Positions 2,762 to 50,332 are shown, counted from the first letter of the stretch. The stretch is DNA of 64,000 nt from Chitinophaga pinensis (GCA_945903305.1 CAMDOA010000007.1:1027-65026), one strand, 5' to 3'. The notes: a model not told the origin generated them from the sequence alone. Translations and numbers: made by a program.

Positions 2762-5700
2762 TTATTGTTTATTCGGATTTATTTCTTTTTTACCTGATTC
2801 AATAAATTGCATGCGCGAAACAAAAGTGTTCTTTTTGTTTTCGCTGGCAACAGTGTATTGATATATTTTTCCATCATCAGTTTTTGTTCTTCGCTTTTCG
2901 GGGTCAATGGCATTCAGTTCAATCATCCAGGTTCTATCACCACTTAGTATTTGCATATTATTATTTTGATAGAAAAAATAATAATATTTATCATCATCAC
3001 CGGGGATATATAAATTCATGTAATCACCACTTTTTTTATAGCCGATTTCAAGGTAAGCCCCTTGAATTACACGGTTAATGGCGGTAGGGCCGATATAGGA
3101 TATTCCGATAGGCCCTTTCGAATAAAATGAACGGGTTTCTTTATCCCAGACTAAATGTAAATCGGTAAAGAAAATGGTGTATTTAAATTCTTCTGGTTTT
3201 TTAAAGGTTCCATCCTTGTTCATTTGCTCGTTAAATTTTTTATCATTTTTAGGTGAAATAAATTCTGGTATATTTTTATTAAAATCGTCGCTGAAATAAT
3301 CAATATCTTCCTGACTGAAATTATTTGCAAGCACTGTTTTTCCCATCATTTCAAGCAGGTTTTCTTTTATTTCAAATTGTAAACCCATCAGTAATGTGAA
3401 CTTGTATTCGTTTTTAATAAGATCAGTATTTATATATCCGCCTGCCTGCACATCCACCAATCCGAAATTTAAACCCATATCCATTTTCCCTTCAGCATAA
3501 ACTTTTGCGGTGGCATCATTGTACTTGATAAAATTTCCACGCGCAGTTTCATTCAAAATTTTGTCGGCATTGCCTGCTAAAAATTCTTTCTTGGTTTCGT
3601 CGTAATACACAATTCCATTAGCAAGAAAAAGATTGCGGTCCTTACTTGTTTTTTTTGCCTGAAAAAATGCAGTATATAAATCAGATGAATCGGCTCCGAA
3701 AACAATTCCAACCGTTGCGGGTTTGTGATTTAAATCTTCCGGATCCTGATAATAAATTAATGAAGAATCAGAGGTGAAATTATTGTTGATGCTGAACCAC
3801 TCCGCCCGAACATTCGGGTTATTTAATTGCAACTTGGCATAGCCGGAAAAATTAAGCGGCTCCTCGATGGATTTAATATTTACCAGTCCACGATAATAAA
3901 TTTTTGGAATCAGTTGAAATTTTTGTGAAGTATCAATCGTGGTTTTTGCATAAGTGCGTAAATTTTTTGTACTGTCTTTATAAACTCCGATGTCGGTGAA
4001 ATTTATTTTTTGCTTATTGCCGTTTTTACCTACAAAACTATAATCACCGCTTGCTTTATAACTCTGCTTGCCATAAACATTTGCTGTTACATTAAAAAAA
4101 CTATGAAACTCATTTATTGTATCGGTTATAATTTTTGCTTTAACCAGCGTGCGCATTTTTGCTTCCGGTTCAACCACCACTTTTCCGCTGTCGGGAAAAA
4201 TTTTAGCATCAACCACACTGATGTATGGAACATCACTCACTTTTAATATAAAATCGGTCAGCGAATAATTAGCTGAACTTCCTGTAAAAGTGAGTAAATC
4301 CTGATCGGGATGAATACTGGTAAATTCGGCTTCAGTACCTGCGGGTGCAATAAATTTTAAATTCTTTTTTGCCATGTCCCATTTAAATTCATTCATGGAT
4401 GTTCGGTACTGATTGTATGGAAGTTCGGTAGCAATATCATCAGTATTTGATTTAAACTCACCAATCTGTTTATCAAAATCAATGTTTGCATTTACATTTT
4501 TGGTGGTAAGAGCAAATTTTTTCGGGTCAATGGATTTAATAACAAAATCAGAAGTATCAGCGGCCATTTTATTTTTTCCGAAACTTATGTCGCCCGACTT
4601 CAATGTGGCATCAGCCCAATCAACTGTTCCGCTTCCTTTTAATCCATTAGGTGTTAGTACAAGTGTGCCGGTCATATCGGTTTCTTTACCAAACATTTTA
4701 AATGGAATGGAATCAACGCTAACCATCATACTATCTGAATAGGGTTTCCATAAAACTTTTACTTCACGACCTTCCACGGTCGGGTATTCAACTCCACCAT
4801 AAGTTGAAGCTTTCATATCAAACAATTTCGCTGTCGCTTTAGTTGAATCTGGAAAAAATATAATGTTATCACTTTGTGTTACAGATGGTAAATAATTAAT
4901 CTGTCCTTTTCCAAGTAAACCTTTATTATCTAACGAAATAGTATTTGTATAATTTCCTTTTCCGCCATACATGGGCAGTACAGTTCTTTTGGTTATAAAT
5001 CCAAGCGACAAATCTTTTTGTATTCCGATTGGCTGAACGATATCAGGAAAAATTCCGGCAGAAACTAATTTCCCTTTGAACTCAACCTTTGAGGGTATAA
5101 AGGCATTTAAACTATCGAAAACAAAAGGATCTAATTGATAATAAAATTTATTTTTTTCATAAACATTTTTTTGTGCTGAAGGCCTCTCATAAAAAACAAA
5201 GGAATGATCGGTTGATTTTAAAGATGGAAAGGCCCAGGTTCTAACCTTACCGCTTTTATTAAACTTGCTGTCAATTTGTAGTTCACCAGTTAGTCGTTCA
5301 ATAAAACTATGGATGGGCACAAGAATGGGTGCGCCGGTTTTATCGCGTTGGCCGCTTGGCAAATTAATAAGCATACTGTCAACAGTGGTTAAGTTTAGTT
5401 TCCAGTCGTCGTATTGCAATCCGAATCCTTTACCGTACATATCCACCCTGCCAGCAAATAATTTTCCATCGAAATCCAAATCGCGGTTTTTCTTTTCAAT
5501 TAAACTATCGTTACGGGGAAAAATGACCACGAAATTTGAATCGCTGATCAGCACGCTTTTTACACCTTTGATATTCATGTTATAACTTCCTAAATCAATT
5601 TGCGCATTCGTGTTTCCTTTTGGGGTCGAAAGAATTTTAATATCGTCGTAATCCATTCTTTTCTGATCCGATAAAACATAGTTGATTGTTTTTTGCCGAA

Positions 5701-7222: not shown

Positions 7223-8055
7223 GAATTCGTTGTGTGTTTTTTAAATTGTATGGCCATCCAGTTTTCCCGGAATTTCCGGTCAATAAATTTCAAATTTAAT
7301 TTTTCCGCTGCTTGCGTTATCAACTTTTCGTCGTCGGTAAGAAAGCCGCTGCAAAATAAAATTCCATCTGGTTTCAGGTTTTGTGAAATGGAATTGAAAA
7401 ATTCAAGTATTACTGTTCGGTTAATATTTGCAAGAATCAGGTCAAATTTATTATCCGAATCAGGGGGCATACTTGATAACTCAGCGATGCACCTGGTTGC
7501 ATTATTTCGTTCAAAATTTTCGTTCATATTATTAAATGCCCACTCTTCATGGTCAATGGCCAGTATTTCAGCAGCACCTGATTTTTCTGCCAGAATAGAA
7601 AGTATACCGGTGCCGGCACCAAAATCAAAAACAATGGAATCAACAAACAGGGATTTGTTTTCGAGCATAAATTCAATCATCATGTGAGTGGTGGCATGGT
7701 GGCCTGTACCAAACGACATTTTAGGGTCAATAATTATTTCTATCGGATATTTTTTTTCAACATGATGAAAAGTGGTTTTGATTAATACCTCATCATTAAT
7801 TTCAATGGGCAATATTTTACTTTCCCATTCTTCATTCCAGTTTTTGTCCGGAATACTTTCAGGAGATGGAATATTTATGCCCAATAATTTGAATTGATAA
7901 ATTAATTCAGGGGTCATATTTTTTTCAGAATCAGTATAAGCAATCAATAATTTTTCTTCTTCCTGAAATCCATTAAAATTATTTTTTGAAAGAACGGCAA
8001 TTAAAATTTCCGCCTGTGCTGAATTACATGCAATTGAATACGAAAAGCAAATCAT
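7219..8055 (-). CDS. prmA: ribosomal protein L11 methyltransferase
   Basis: 278 aa with FGTGHHATT and the SAM-binding motif DFGAGTGILS. Length is typical of PrmA. Confidence 0.9.
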   Translation of the reverse strand: MICFSYSIACNSAQAEILIAVLSKNNFNGFQEEEKLLIAYTDSEKNMTPELIYQFKLLGINIPSPESIPDKNWNEEWESKILPIEINDEVLIKTTFHHVEKKYPIEIIIDPKMSFGTGHHATTHMMIEFMLENKSLFVDSIVFDFGAGTGILSILAEKSGAAEILAIDHEEWAFNNMNENFERNNATRCIAELSSMPPDSDNKFDLILANINRTVILEFFNSISQNLKPDGILFCSGFLTDDEKLITQAAEKLNLKFIDRKFRENWMAIQFKKHTTNS

Positions 8056-9463: not shown

Positions 9464-11542
9464 CTACTTCACTACTATCAGTTTTTTTATTTCCATAAAA
9501 TCAGCAGATTGCAATTGCACCAAATAAATTCCCTGTGAAATATTTTTCAGATTCACCGCTTGAGAATTATAATTTGATTCTTTAACATAAATAGTTTCGC
9601 CAAGCATATTGGTGATTGCGATTTTATATGCTGATAACTCTTTACTTATTACTGTGAATTGCTCACTGGCAGGATTTGGAAAAATCTGAAATCCAAATTC
9701 TGAATTCTCATGTTCATTTATTCCAACTCCGGCAACCGAAAAACAAAAGGAAGTATCAGTGCAACCATTTTGTGTTATTGCGACAGCATAATTTCCGTTG
9801 GCTGTTGCAGTAAAAATCTGATTGGTTGCTCCGCTGATTATTGCAAAACTGCTATCGCAATTGAGCCATTGATAATTTGCGGCGGCGGCGTTGGCAGTTA
9901 GTGTAATGCCACTTTGTGTTAATGAAGGATCAACTGAATTGATTGTGAGATTGATTGAAATGATGCTATCACATCCAGCAACATTTGGAATTGTATCTTG
10001 ATAAATACCTGAGGTTGACCAGATGTAATTACCACTCGGGGAAATATAATTATCGCATGCAGTTAAGCTAAAATTTGCTAGTGTAAAACTACAGAGTGAA
10101 AGTTTACCAACTGAAATATCTAAGGAATAGTTTGCTCCAATATTAATTAATAATGCAGAATCAAATGAAACAGAATCACTATAAAATGAGCCTGCAAAAT
10201 ACAGGAAACCTAAATTTTTAATAGTTATCGAATTACCTTAATCAGTATTTGAACCACCCATTGATTTTACCCATGCAAAATTACCCGCACTACTCAGCTT
10301 AGAAATATACATATCTCTGTTCCCTAATGAAGTTACATTATAAACCCCAACTCCTGGATCAAAATCTACTGTTCCCCAAAAAACACCTGTTGTATAAACG
10401 CTTCCCAAAGCATCAATTTGAATTGAATATGCCATATCATAACCACCACCGGTAAATGGTTTCGCCCACACAAAATCTCCATTGTTGTCAAGTTTAGAAA
10501 TAAAAATATCTCTATTTACTGTCGATACTAAACCAAAATATGATGTGTCAGGATCAAAATCAACAGAACCTAAAAGCCAACCTGTTGTAAGAACATTACC
10601 AAAATCATCCAGTGCAATTGATAAAGGCCCAAGGCTTCCTGAACCTCCAAATGATTTTGCCCAAATAAAATTTCCGGAATTATCTGATTTATAAAGAAAC
10701 ATATCTGAACCACCAGTAGTTGATAATGAAATTAAATTATATACCCCAATTCCTGGGTCAAAATCAACCGTATCTACAAAATTTCCGGTAGTATATATAT
10801 TACCAGCTGAATCTAGTGTAATTGCGGTGCCGGCATTATTGTATGTTCCACCAATATTTTTTACCCATACAAGATTTCCCGTGTTATCTAATTTCGATAT
10901 AAAAATATCAGAATATCCAATTGAAGTCACATTGAATATTCCGGTTCCAGTATCAAAATCCACTGCTCCAGTAAAAAAACCTGTTAAGAAAACATCGCCA
11001 AAATTATTAACATAAATCGAGGTAATCTCATCATAACCCGACCCGCCAATCTGTTTAGCCCAAATAAAATTTCCATTGGAATCAATTTTTGAAATGAACA
11101 TATCTTCATAACCATTCGAAATTAAATTAAAAGTCGCTCCACCTGGGTCAAAGTCAACAGTATCTTCAAAATATCCGGCGAAATAAATATTGCCATACAT
11201 ATCCAGTCCAATTGTTAGCGGAAAGTCATATCCTATTCCACCCATTGATTTAGCCCAAAATAAATTTCCAGAACTATCATATTTGGAAATAAAAATATCA
11301 TAGATACCATTAGAAGTTAAATTTTGAATTCCAATTCCCGGATCAAAGTCAAATGATCCACCAAATGCTCCACCAAATACTCCAACAATATAAATATTTC
11401 CCTTTTCATCTGAGGTCATTGATTTCGAAACTCCACTATGTGATCCTCCTAATCCTTTTGCCCATAACCAATCTGGTGCTTGTGCATTTGATTTTGAAAT
11501 AAAAAGTAAAAACAAAATAAGCGGCAGCAGTATTTTTTTCAT
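9464..11542 (-). pseudogene. SBBP beta-propeller-repeat surface protein with T9SS C-terminal sorting domain, interrupted by one in-frame TAA at 10238-10240
   Basis: The track ORF 10238..11542 has a signal peptide plus about eight repeats of the form GG.G.D...SI..D..GN.Y..G.F.G..DFDPG. Hand translation past the TAA in the same frame stays open for 257 codons. It ends in FQIFPNPASEQFTV...GIYLVQLQSADFMEIKKLIVVK, with the stop at 9464-9466. Confidence 0.75.
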
Positions 11543-25983: not shown

Positions 25984-26041
25984 TGATAGTAATACTATCA
26001 AAAAAAATATTAATGCTATCAATATAAATATTAATACTACA
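25984..26041. promoter_or_regulatory. candidate TetR operators: 17-bp perfect palindrome plus three 21-bp-phased TAATrCTAyCA sites
   Basis: TGATAGTAATACTATCA at 25984-26000. Direct copies are taatactatca (25990), taatgctatca (26011) and taatactaca (26032). All lie in the divergent TetR / carbonic anhydrase spacer. Confidence 0.5.
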
Positions 26042-26067: not shown

Positions 26068-26757
26068 ATGTTAAATTTTAAGAACACCACTCTGGTACTC
26101 AGCATGAGCCTAATCATTGCTTCTTGCGGTCAAACCAAAACTGAACCGGTTGAAAGCGAAATGGCTGTGCATGAGCAAATAACCATTAACACTCCGGACG
26201 ATGCCTTGTCAGAACTCAAAAGAGGAAATCAACGATTTGTTGACGGGAAGTTGACTAACACCAATTACAAAGCGCAGATTGAGCAAACGAAAGCAGATCA
26301 GCATCCTCACTCGTTAGTTCTTTCGTGCCTTGATTCACGCATTCCACCAGAAATTATTTTTGATCAGGGAATCGGAAATATTTTTGTAGCCCGCGTGGCA
26401 GGTAATGTAGAAGACCCGAATATTTTAGGCAGTATGGAATTTGCAACCAAAGTAAAAGGAACAAAACTTATTGTTGTGATGGGCCACAATCACTGTGGCG
26501 CTGTTAAAGGTGCTGTTGATGATGCGGAATTAGGAAACCTTACTCAACTTGTAGATCAGATTAAGCCGGCCTTTACCGGCGATACATCAAATATTGCGTT
26601 GTTGCTGGATGAAACATCAAAAAATAATGTTAAAACAACCATTGAGCATATTGTAAAAGATAGTCCGGTTATAGCTGAATTGATTAAAGAAGGCAAAGTA
26701 AAAATTGTTGGTGCTTATTATGATATCACCAAGGGGCAAGTCAGTTTTTTTGAATAA
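26068..26757 (+). CDS. beta-class carbonic anhydrase, lipoprotein
   Basis: Lipobox LIIASC. The zinc-ligand motifs are SCLDSRIPPE and GHNHCGAV. Confidence 0.9.
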   Translation: MLNFKNTTLVLSMSLIIASCGQTKTEPVESEMAVHEQITINTPDDALSELKRGNQRFVDGKLTNTNYKAQIEQTKADQHPHSLVLSCLDSRIPPEIIFDQGIGNIFVARVAGNVEDPNILGSMEFATKVKGTKLIVVMGHNHCGAVKGAVDDAELGNLTQLVDQIKPAFTGDTSNIALLLDETSKNNVKTTIEHIVKDSPVIAELIKEGKVKIVGAYYDITKGQVSFFE

Positions 26758-36906: not shown

Positions 36907-37272
36907 TCACATCCCCTCCGCAATTTTTTTAAGCTCTTCAATTTTATCGGGCGATAATTTTTTTATAATGGCATTCAGGTTAGCGCTGTCAACTTTCAGT
37001 TTCAAAGCTTGCAGCGGATGTGTGGGCTGGTCGAGGGCTTTATCTTTTGGTGTCCATATAAATAAATCGTTGGGAGTGCACCATAGTTTTTCGCATATCA
37101 TGGCCAGGTGGTGCATGGGCAGGCCGCGTTTAAACTTACCGTGCAATAATTTGTGCGCGGTGTTGTTTGATATGCCCTGCTTCATCATCCAACTTACCGG
37201 CTTGTCAATTCCTTTAGTCTTAAAAAAGGTTTGGAGGTTCAGCGTGAGCGTTTCTTTAGTGGTTGCGGGCAT
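36907..37272 (-). CDS. small helix-turn-helix (XRE-like) DNA-binding protein
   Basis: 121 aa. HTH-like segment ISNNTAHKLLHGKFKRGLPMHHLAMICEKLWCTPNDLF. A TACATTTG -7-type box (rc of 37302-37309) lies 30 nt upstream of the ATG. Confidence 0.65.
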   Translation of the reverse strand: MPATTKETLTLNLQTFFKTKGIDKPVSWMMKQGISNNTAHKLLHGKFKRGLPMHHLAMICEKLWCTPNDLFIWTPKDKALDQPTHPLQALKLKVDSANLNAIIKKLSPDKIEELKKIAEGM

Positions 37273-37337
37273 TAATCTTTATTGATTGTGAATTCAGGCA
37301 TCAAATGTATGCATTTGTTTAGTATTTGCGAGCATTA

Positions 37338-37535
37338 TTATAAATGGAAGCTAACACATTATAAATGCAATATAAACCTTTATAAATGTAAGATAATAAT
37401 TTATAAATGTAAGATAACTAATAATATCTTTAACATAAATATTACTAACTGTAATATAAATAATTATTAATGGAAGCTAATAAATTATATATGGAAACTA
37501 ATAAATGATATCTGTAAGATAACAAATGATAAATC
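37338..37535. repeat. tandem array of about nine 21-bp units, consensus TTATAAATGTAAGATAAtAAa
   Basis: Units start at 37338, 37359, 37380, 37401, 37422, 37443, 37464, 37485 and 37506, exactly 21 bp apart. Units 3 and 4 are near-identical; units 5 and 6 are degenerate. Confidence 0.85.
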
Positions 37536-37660
37536 TCCGCCGTTGTTGGTCGCCTGACCAACAATTAAAAGTAAGGTTGTATTAACCTACTGCTGTCAGG
37601 CAGCTACAGCAAAGGCAAACCCGCGTTCCGACAAACCCGCGAAGGCAAACCAGAGTGGGC
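37536..37660. other. GC-rich structured island (possible small RNA or processing/termination element)
   Basis: Perfect hairpin ttgttggtc-gcct-gaccaacaa at 37543-37564. A second stem is tgctgt...acagca. Three tandem units of about 15 nt lie at 37612-37655 (aaggcaaacccgcg / ttccgacaaacccgcg / aaggcaaaccagag). Confidence 0.35.
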
Positions 37661-37702
37661 TGTATTCTTTTCCTCCTAAAAAAACTATCGAAAAACGATA
37701 AA

Positions 37703-49143: not shown

Positions 49144-49184
49144 ATCAGTAATACCTATTTTTGAATAAATTTTTAATTCTTAGT

Positions 49185-49643
49185 ATGAAAAAATTCAGCA
49201 TCTTTTTATTCCCTGTTTTTTTTTACTTGCTTTTGGGATCCTGTTTGCGTCCGCCCGAATTTTCTGAAACACCGGTTATAGAATTTGTAAGTATAAACAG
49301 TACGCTTATTCAGCAGGAGATTGATTCTATTAAAATGGTAATCAGCTTTAAAGATGGCGATGGCGATTTAGGTTCCATGGTGAATGATACGAGCACCAAT
49401 TGTTTTATCACCGATCACCGACCCGGAAAACCCGATTACACTTATACTTATAAAATTCCATTTATTACTCCCAAAGGAACTACTAAAGATATCTCGGGTA
49501 CAGTGACCATCAATCTTCCCGGCATTACCTGCATTCCGTTTCAGGATACTGATTCAGTTATTTATAAAATTGTCATTATTGACCGTGCAGGTCACAAAAG
49601 CAACGAAGTGCAAACTCCGGTTATAGTAGTGAATTGTTTGTGA
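49185..49643 (+). CDS. small lipoprotein, unknown function
   Basis: The ATG at 49185 gives MKKFSIFLFPVFFYLLLGSC, a lipobox. The track start at 49161 is TTG. Confidence 0.55.
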   Translation: MKKFSIFLFPVFFYLLLGSCLRPPEFSETPVIEFVSINSTLIQQEIDSIKMVISFKDGDGDLGSMVNDTSTNCFITDHRPGKPDYTYTYKIPFITPKGTTKDISGTVTINLPGITCIPFQDTDSVIYKIVIIDRAGHKSNEVQTPVIVVNCL

Positions 49644-49646
49644 GGA

Positions 49647-49749
49647 TAGTTCAATCGTTCATTAGTTGATTAGTTCATTGGTTGATTAGTTGACTAGTTC
49701 ATTAGTTCAATGGAGTATTTGTTCATTAGAGTATTAGTCATTAGTTCGT
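49647..49749. repeat. 13 tandem 8-bp units, consensus TAGTTCAT
   Basis: The units read tagttcaa tcgttcat tagttgat tagttcat tggttgat tagttgac tagttcat tagttcaa tggagtat ttgttcat tagagtat tagtcat tagttcgt. The array starts 4 nt after the upstream stop. Confidence 0.85.
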
Positions 49750-49796: not shown

Positions 49797-50147
49797 TTAA
49801 CTTTTTTTATAACTGCCAAAAGGTATAGTTACATAAATCCATAACACCCGACTATAACGATAGATGTAGGGGAAGAAAAATATAAGCGATACACAAAGTG
49901 TAACCACCATTGGCACCATTTGAAAACCGAAAAATAAAAGCATGAGAAAGAAAATCGGAACCTCAATTGCTATAGAAACCATGTAAGAAATATACATGGC
50001 GCCGTAATAAAAACCAACCTCCGGAAAATAAGATTGATTGCAAATCAGGCAGCGTGGCGGCATGGAATCTAACTTGTTCAGTATCCACGGATTTTTTGTT
50101 TCGAACAAATTACCCTTACGGCAATTTGGGCATTTCATTTTCCACAT
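49797..50147 (-). CDS. DUF983-like membrane protein with N-terminal zinc ribbon
   Basis: MWKMKCPNCRKGNLF...PPRCLICNQSYFPEVGFYYGAMYISY followed by TM helices. Start set to the ATG at 50145-50147. Confidence 0.7.
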   Translation of the reverse strand: MWKMKCPNCRKGNLFETKNPWILNKLDSMPPRCLICNQSYFPEVGFYYGAMYISYMVSIAIEVPIFFLMLLFFGFQMVPMVVTLCVSLIFFFPYIYRYSRVLWIYVTIPFGSYKKS

Positions 50148-50332
50148 TCCTTTTAGTAAAGGAATATTTTTACCTTCTTGCATTTGGCAAAGAAATAAGT
50201 TCAATACTTAACATCAAATTATTGACAATTTGTTTTCTATAATTCTGAACTTTCAGTCTGTTACTCTATTGAAAAAACAAAGCCTCTCGAATACTTTGAG
50301 TGGCTCTGTTGATTTATATAAATCGCAGCTAA

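Follow-up and report, generated by a model that had tools for sequence, protein, structure and literature searches.

The stretch of Chitinophaga pinensis DNA analysed here, 64,000 nucleotides long and referred to throughout as the window, carries on its minus strand a gene for a 121-aa helix-turn-helix (HTH) protein of the Cro/C1 type (36907..37272) with a match to the Pfam family PF13443. On the upstream side of this gene lie a promoter or leader region between the ATG and an array (37273..37337, minus strand), recognized from a reading of the sequence and a family meta-profile, and then the array itself, a tandem series of 21-bp units on the same strand (37338..37534), which was delimited with TRF, a repeat search and an alignment of the units in register. 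The lepA and folD genes are found downstream of the HTH gene, and on the upstream side is the 3' end of a gene for a fused E1-type dehydrogenase of 817 aa. A preliminary description of this DNA had placed the array between housekeeping genes, and this placement holds. lepA has a TATATTTG box of its own, and the cassette formed by HTH gene and array has no tightly coupled downstream gene in the window.

For the array, TRF reports a period of 21 bp with 9.4 copies, 72% matches and a score of 110, the consensus being TTATAAATGTAAGATAATAAT, and a super-period of 84 bp, equal to four units, which is repeated 2.1 times with a score of 196, is the top-scoring repeat of the 64-kb window. The copies recovered by the repeat search are spaced exactly 21 bp apart, which confirms the nine phased repeats upstream of a small HTH gene that had been described initially. 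On the HTH strand the unit consensus reads approximately A(G/T)CTT(A/C)CATTTATAA followed by a variable tail of 6 nt, and the central units are degenerate. When the window was searched with the 17-mer TTATAAATGTAAGATAA at up to three mismatches, six matches were found inside the array and one elsewhere (chance expectation 1.01), and none of 100 shuffles reached seven matches; in the window, matches beyond the array are at chance level. The segment that separates the array from the HTH gene contains a -7 box of the Bacteroidota type, TACATTTG, 30 nt before the ATG, and its position as the reverse complement of 37302-37309, already pointed out in the preliminary description, was read directly from the sequence. 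The proximal end of the array is ~28 nt upstream of this box and lies over the expected -33 zone. TAnnTTTG is likewise present 32-37 nt before the ATG in three related loci (L001, L002 and L007).

Other small features occur near the cassette and elsewhere in the window. A hairpin with a perfect 9-bp stem (TTGTTGGTC-GCCT-GACCAACAA, 37543-37564) abuts the distal end of the array and may be a REP-like element; in L002 a hairpin like it is located after the stop codon of the HTH gene, beside a Y1 (IS200-like) transposase gene. A 107-bp element (37578-37684) is 87% identical to positions 4368-4473 of L001 and begins in both loci 19-26 nt past the stop codon of a minus-strand housekeeping gene, the E1 dehydrogenase in the window and FabD in L001. 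It adjoins the HTH cassette in both loci, but on opposite sides. Three direct repeats resembling GGCAAACCCGCG lie within it; the window has a single copy of the element, and Rfam gave no match. Far from the cassette, at 25986-26039, a 21-bp repeat of 2.6 copies (ATATTAATACTATCAAAAAAA), which contains the palindrome GATAGTAATACTATC, lies between a TetR-like gene (25240-~25900, minus strand) and a carbonic-anhydrase-like gene (26068-26757); it probably represents a duplicated operator for TetR, without relation to the HTH_26 family. Between a pair of convergent ORFs (49161-49643, plus strand, and 49797-50204, minus strand) there is a degenerate tandem repeat of 8 bp at 49647-49747 (TAGTTCAT, 12.8 copies, 69% matches).

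The PF13443 (HTH_26) match covers residues 17-76 of the HTH protein (37.4 bits, the curated cut-off being 22; E 3e-9), and homologues of the protein also have a precomputed match to this family. An AF2 model based on an alignment of 73 sequences (pLDDT 84.7) places helices at residues 13-19, 25-31, 36-44, 53-63 and 67-70, the five-helix fold of lambda-repressor-like HTH proteins, within an N-terminal domain of ~75 aa that has two short flanking beta strands. The C-terminal ~45 aa are modelled as three helices, which include a conserved HPLQAL motif. The best Foldseek matches extend over approximately the first 70 residues and comprise VanU, the Xre protein 3bs3 of Bacteroides fragilis, CylR2 and Stl of SaPI2 (TM on the target 0.65-0.76, with weak E-values of 0.02-0.1), and Foldseek returned no match for the C-terminal extension. 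A profile search of PDB sequences with the HTH family yielded noise only and did not match the P2 C protein (2xcj), and the PADLOC, PHROGs and NCBIfam profiles gave no significant match for either the HTH protein or the ~320-aa partner protein that accompanies it at some loci. The dN/dS values of 0.01-0.17 across thirteen family pairs indicate that the HTH protein is strongly constrained over its whole length by purifying selection. A full profile search at E<1e-10 recovered 668 clusters of the family (clustered at 50% identity), almost all of them ~115 aa long and matched from end to end, together with a few tandem double-HTH fusions of 200-240 aa in which the profile matches twice (P0049, P0104, P0108 and P0138).

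The pairing of array and HTH gene recurs throughout this family. A word-indexed search with the HTH protein of the window gave nine relatives, and on all contigs fetched for them a 21-bp array closely precedes the HTH gene, unit sequence and gene neighbourhood differing from one contig to the next. A pattern scan of 185,579 species genomes, one genome per species, matched 366 stretches, 272 of which encode a relative, and 80 loci were kept, the majority from Bacteroidota and the others from Ignavibacteriota and Acidobacteriota. Cultured carriers among the loci include Pedobacter planticolens LMG 31464 (L014), Limibacterium fermenti me31 (L057) and Rubrolithibacter danxiaensis (L077). Among arrays of at least three copies over all loci, a period of 21 bp was found 56 times, 42 bp 14 times, 63 bp four times and any other period at most seven times. 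An array detectable by TRF, with a period of 20-22 bp (nearly always 21) and 36-255 bp before the HTH gene, is present in 46 of 86 loci, and the arrays hold 3-14 sites; in the loci missed by TRF, a degenerate 21-bp phasing is still visible by eye. Over the 450 bp that precede the HTH gene, lag 21 was the best of 22 lags (12-33) in 70 of 79 loci, as against 7/74, 6/70, 9/77 and 6/70 in four control regions of the same loci and 2/26 upstream of generic HTH_26 genes on viral contigs. Similarly, 52 period-21 arrays fall within 500 bp upstream of the HTH gene, and the other ~700 kb of these loci hold only four. In a meta-profile over 73 loci, the 21-bp signal extends from approximately position -250 to position -1, counted from the ATG, and is absent from the coding sequence, and in the group of loci around L021 the units extend up to the ATG itself; distances between array and promoter are approximate, because the start codons of the other loci were set by alignment.

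Copy numbers are also similar between orthologues. Where the proteins are at least 94% identical, the array has 5.3 copies in five loci of one group and 3.1-5.6 in its other members, 8.9 and 9.2 in a further pair, and 8.9 in both of two identical arrays from independent samples, few such orthologue sets being available in total. Several paralogous cassettes with differing arrays can occur within one genome. These comparisons indicate that the array-HTH pairing is a trait of the family and not a local oddity, being found in ~90% of homologous loci from three phyla, invariably on the upstream side and with a 21-bp period. The earlier suggestion of an operator-like array that belongs to the HTH gene is thereby strongly supported, and the similar copy numbers among orthologues, together with the persistent linkage, differ from the hypervariable and unlinked repeats that a simple minisatellite would have shown. 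The architecture constitutes a widespread family for which searches of protein-family libraries and of the literature on 21-bp repeats with Xre or HTH proteins gave no description.

Within arrays, sequence identity is 0.76 at lag 21 and 0.75 at lag 42, over a baseline of 0.28-0.36 at the other lags from 5 to 41. No sub-period of 10-11 bp (10.5 bp) was detected within the arrays and the consensus units show no dyad symmetry (z = 0.01), so the unit is a single asymmetric element that recurs every two helical turns. Unit sequences vary between lineages, and a core of ~12 bp, GCTTCC..TA, is kept in the clade of the window. Seven loci whose proteins are 36-83% identical to that of the window have GCTT at unit positions 1-4 and TA at positions 10-11, and two paralogues of a single MAG with 94% identical proteins (L008 and L070) share GTCnnAGCTnnCAA in their units. 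In L056 and L064 the proteins are 99% identical at a dS of 1.25, the core GCTTCyyTTTA is kept and the rest of the unit differs; retention of the core at saturated dS while the spacer drifts implies sequence readout. Inside single arrays all positions are similarly uniform, which reflects recent duplication. Unit similarity drops from 0.79 to 0.49 with protein divergence, and its correlation with protein identity is nearly the same for residues 24-48, which include the recognition helix (rho 0.36), and for the rest of the protein (rho 0.35), so that the co-divergence may reflect shared ancestry alone.

In ~10% of the loci, a gene for a protein of ~320 aa is found beyond the array, in divergent orientation; the copy in the window lacks it. 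This partner has no Pfam match and belongs to a family of 34 members. Among the homologues encoded in the loci, 12 of 13 are accompanied by a divergent HTH gene and all 13 by a 21-bp array, and each of three further loci found through the partner protein contains both an HTH gene and a 21-bp array. The partner loci are L001-L003, L007, L015, L067, L070, L073, L193, L195 and L196, with an additional partner gene at L027 633-1577, and their contexts are unrelated, the L195 copy being located beside the rpoA ribosomal-protein operon. The partner is modelled with a pLDDT of 90 as a long helical bundle joined to a jelly-roll, and fold searches gave no whole-protein match, the C-terminal jelly-roll weakly matching PirA, Ena and cupins. 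A few 21-bp arrays stand without an adjacent HTH gene of the family (L134 872-1314, L137 7079-7316, L019 1866-2073, L020 1389-1647 and L027 1812-2069) and reach 18.9 copies. Those of L027, L134 and L137 adjoin the partner or ~320-aa proteins remotely similar to it; the L134 and L137 proteins are related to the partner family at an hhalign E of 0.0015 and to each other at a BLASTP E of 6e-7. Because such arrays exist, an adjacent HTH gene cannot be obligatory, and another factor or reading in trans is possible.

The genomic context of the cassette is variable. Close relatives of the HTH gene of the window lie in different genomic contexts, and when metagenome contigs were scanned with the C-terminal 250 aa of the E1 dehydrogenase, the best relatives were at most 72% identical and in none of 80 loci did a lepA or HTH homologue lie closer than 4 kb, so that the scan yielded no empty site. 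Synteny is stable in some subfamilies, as in the arrangement PrmC-HTH-DinB_2. In a group of nine loci from eight MAGs with proteins 94-100% identical, all comparisons place the beginning of nucleotide homology (89-95%) precisely at the array's distal edge; in L031 the shared block ends 12 bp past the HTH stop codon, and the flanks within the group are mostly unrelated. Two copies encoding an identical protein, L020 and L024, occur in one MAG, and some copies adjoin an IS110 or Y1 transposase gene or a multi-copy intergenic repeat. Inspection by eye of the cassette edges in the L021 group revealed neither terminal inverted repeats nor target duplications. The 126 neighbouring proteins are products of heterogeneous housekeeping genes and include no Rep, Par, integrase or recurrent transposase, nor are actin-, tubulin- or ParA-type families found among their most frequent Pfam families, and apart from the ~320-aa protein there is no conserved neighbour beyond lineage-level synteny. 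The HTH family was not matched in 50,697 phage records, gave one weak partial match in 72,556 plasmids, and in IMG/VR only partial, generic HTH matches without a full-length family member. Taken together, HTH gene and array behave, by comparison of these sequences, as a single cassette that relocates as one, for which no mobilising enzyme or terminal structure was found.

One of the multi-copy intergenic repeats was seen in the same group of contigs. It lies directly 3' of the HTH stop codon in L021 (6376-6750), where further copies are found at 2822-3459, 7401-7581, 10393-10574 and 11024-11210, and it is also present in L019, L020, L024, L028, L040, L041 and L045. Several contigs of the L021 group end inside this repeat, as expected of a repeat that breaks assemblies.

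The pairing, the phasing and the conserved core suggest that the array is probably a helically phased operator of the adjacent HTH protein, the two forming a self-contained, two-part cassette. We infer binding, its stoichiometry, repression and a role of the C-terminal helices as follows. Each asymmetric 21-bp unit would offer one conserved core of ~12 bp, GCTTCC..TA in the clade of the window, and one protein unit would occupy each core, probably as a dimer whose first HTH contacts the core and whose second lies over the variable part of the unit, as has been proposed for P2 C. As 21 bp corresponds to two helical turns, the bound units would lie on one face of the DNA, where neighbours could touch, presumably through the conserved C-terminal helices, and assemble cooperatively into a filament. 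The units nearest the gene adjoin its own -33/-7 promoter or extend into it, and a filled array would be expected to repress the HTH gene with a sharp threshold. Where the divergent ~320-aa 'cargo' is present, the same complex would control the cargo gene as well.

This model is incomplete, because an autoregulator without a target brings no obvious benefit, yet the protein is highly constrained. A more far-reaching proposal, which we offer tentatively and hold to be considerably less probable than the operator itself, is that of an undescribed, widespread kind of two-part chromosomal cassette in Bacteroidota, Ignavibacteriota and Acidobacteriota that would relocate as a whole, with sharp edges at array and stop codon, build a long one-faced filament and provide each paralogue with a portable, sequence-private switch or landmark, in some cases controlling the ~320-aa protein, and that would not be an ordinary local repressor.

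Could the complex of HTH protein and array be the product in itself, acting as a chromosomal landmark, a roadblock to transcription or replication, an insulator, or a titration sink by which a threshold is set for what the protein does elsewhere, with autoregulation as a secondary matter? The very strong purifying selection in spite of the lack of a conserved target gene speaks for such a role, as do the 3-14 sites where two would do for repression and the presence of several paralogous cassettes with different arrays per genome; synthetic decoy arrays are reported to sharpen responses (PMC3322331). However, the unit motif occurs elsewhere in the 64-kb window at chance level only, the cassettes have no consistent chromosomal position or neighbour, and the array is always found on the promoter side and extends as far as the start codon, an arrangement for which a pure landmark would have no use. 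We consider this explanation unlikely.

The array might instead act in cis for a small element that is mobile or once replicated, as an iteron, a centromere-like site or a recombination arm; the HTH protein would be an accessory of this element, and the cassette would move as one piece. The sharp boundaries of the block shared by nine loci in eight MAGs, at the distal edge of the array and in L031 12 bp past the stop codon, the paired identical-protein copies of L020 and L024, the differing contexts of relatives and the IS110 or Y1 transposase genes and multi-copy repeats beside some copies are all compatible with this idea, and the architecture resembles that of iterons and of the parC and tubC centromeres. 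It is nevertheless distinctly unlikely, given that the cassettes have no regular neighbour encoding a Rep, Par NTPase, integrase or transposase, that the phage, plasmid and IMG/VR collections hold no full-length member, that the edges of the L021 group lack terminal inverted repeats or target duplications and that synteny is stable in subfamilies such as PrmC-HTH-DinB_2; errors in MAG binning could also inflate the multi-copy count. The iteron among the initial suggestions is, in the sense of a true replication origin element, accordingly improbable, there being no Rep gene and no full-length member of the family in phage or plasmid records.

The constancy of the period, while unit sequences vary widely, could also mean that the shape of the DNA matters and not its sequence, in-phase bends curving an AT-rich segment that would modulate the promoter or attract a general nucleoid protein, upstream of an HTH gene that is merely regulated. 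The arrays are indeed AT-rich (26% GC as compared with 39% in the flanks), and some are located upstream of cargo-like genes without an adjacent HTH gene. Curvature is predicted for the array in the window: its ratio of end-to-end to contour length, 0.80, is among the lowest 0.9% of window segments, and the curvature is lost once the period is reset to 20 or 22, but against shuffles of the same composition it is not significant (6.7%). Furthermore, a specific core is kept between orthologues at saturated dS, and the near-exclusive tie to one HTH family would be left unexplained, which makes an explanation by shape alone very unlikely.

A neutral minisatellite, a heptad-repeat coding sequence or a repeat RNA gene that happens to lie beside the HTH gene is scarcely credible, even though 21 is a multiple of 3, gene callers set ORFs over some arrays and high within-array identity at some loci points to recent duplication, since the HTH linkage is conserved across three phyla, orthologues have similar copy numbers (5.3 in five loci of a group ranging from 3.1 to 5.6, 8.9/9.2 and 8.9/8.9), no frame or strand is consistently open over the arrays, seven of 30 being closed in all six frames, including that of the window with 1-16 stops per frame, folding reveals no RNA structure in the array of the window (z = -0.47), and an Rfam scan of the window region and two related loci found nothing relevant. 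Equally improbable is that each unit mimics the Bacteroidota -7 element, the array being a cluster of promoters or a decoy for sigma factors: some units of the window do read TACATTTA, one base off TAnnTTTG and similar to the gene's own TACATTTG box, but on the HTH strand no window unit has the strict motif, which occurs five times among ~244 units from 45 arrays, only two window units have the relaxed form TAnnTTT[ACT], the conserved core of the clade is GCTTCC..TA and not TAnnTTTG, the family reaches Ignavibacteriota and Acidobacteriota, where units are GC-richer, and the -7 box of the gene is 4 bp out of register with the array. The initial reading of every unit as a -7 promoter box does not survive these counts, and with it falls the sigma-titrating decoy array, the -7 consensus being absent from the window units and rare across the 45 arrays.

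If the operator reading is correct, the family would represent a large set of natural, mutually orthogonal pairs of protein and array, with at least 668 clusters at 50% identity, each pair joining a tiny HTH protein to a private core of ~12 bp that recurs at exactly two helical turns. It would provide a model for the way in which Cro/C1 proteins read asymmetric direct repeats, for thresholds set by cooperative filaments and for the co-evolution of specificity and site, and would be a possible source of orthogonal repressor/operator parts for Bacteroidota.

Among known systems, the closest folds to the N-terminal ~70 residues, the flanking beta strands included, are those of CylR2, VanU and other small Xre proteins (PDB 1utx, 2xiu, 3tyr and 3bs3), which share the HTH_26 domain but lack the C-terminal extension formed by HPLQAL and the following helices. 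According to reports on CylR2, these regulators bind single inverted-repeat operators, and we know of no arrays for CylR2, VanU or related small Xre regulators. Plasmid iterons, such as those read by R6K pi, pPS10 RepA, RK2 TrfA and P1 RepA, are direct repeats of 17-22 bp that are spaced by about two helical turns, bound by the cognate Rep protein and associated with an autorepressed promoter. They have in common with the arrays described here the contiguous or near-contiguous direct repeats, the two-turn spacing, the protein encoded alongside and a promoter within or next to the repeats; they differ in that Rep is a winged-helix initiator acting in a plasmid context with 22-bp spacing, whereas here the spacing is 21 bp and there is neither a Rep gene nor a replicon context. 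In the partition systems parC-ParR of R1 and tubC-TubR of pBtoxis, phased repeats lie upstream of the gene for the coating protein, which forms a one-sided or helical filament and autoregulates its promoter. The likeness consists in the phased direct repeats immediately upstream of a gene for a predicted array-binding protein, but ParM, TubZ or ParA partners, which those systems possess, are not found among the neighbours here, the DNA-binding proteins of those systems are of the ribbon-helix-helix or winged-HTH type, as against the Cro/C1 HTH type here, and the context of the family of the window is chromosomal and variable.

Two further comparisons concern phage repressors. Monomeric immunity repressors of mycobacteriophages combine an HTH with a second small domain and bind an asymmetric site that is present in many copies (PMC9283540); these stoperators are dispersed over the phage genome and are not tandem or phased, and the protein families are unrelated. 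The nearest precedent is the C repressor of phage P2, for which 8-bp non-palindromic direct repeats are located 22 bp apart across the Pe promoter, and one HTH of each dimer has been proposed to read the repeat specifically and the other non-specifically, with neighbouring dimers acting cooperatively (PMC2995052). Both are small Cro/CI-type HTH proteins with direct repeats two helical turns apart over a promoter (22 as compared with 21 bp). P2 C differs in having two 8-bp half-sites, as against the 3-14 contiguous units of the family of the window, and in belonging to a prophage immunity region, while that family is chromosomal and was not found in phage collections; no sequence similarity was detected between them, and the 45-aa C-terminal helical extension has no structural match. 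The opinion that no element of such form had been described therefore agrees with the literature and database searches as far as the array itself is concerned, but not for its underlying principle, since two-turn direct-repeat operators are known for P2 C (PMC2995052). On present comparisons, the best reading of the cassette is that of a putative direct-repeat HTH operator of this kind which has been expanded into a long, strictly phased and lineage-private array and packaged, together with the gene for its predicted reader, as a relocating unit.
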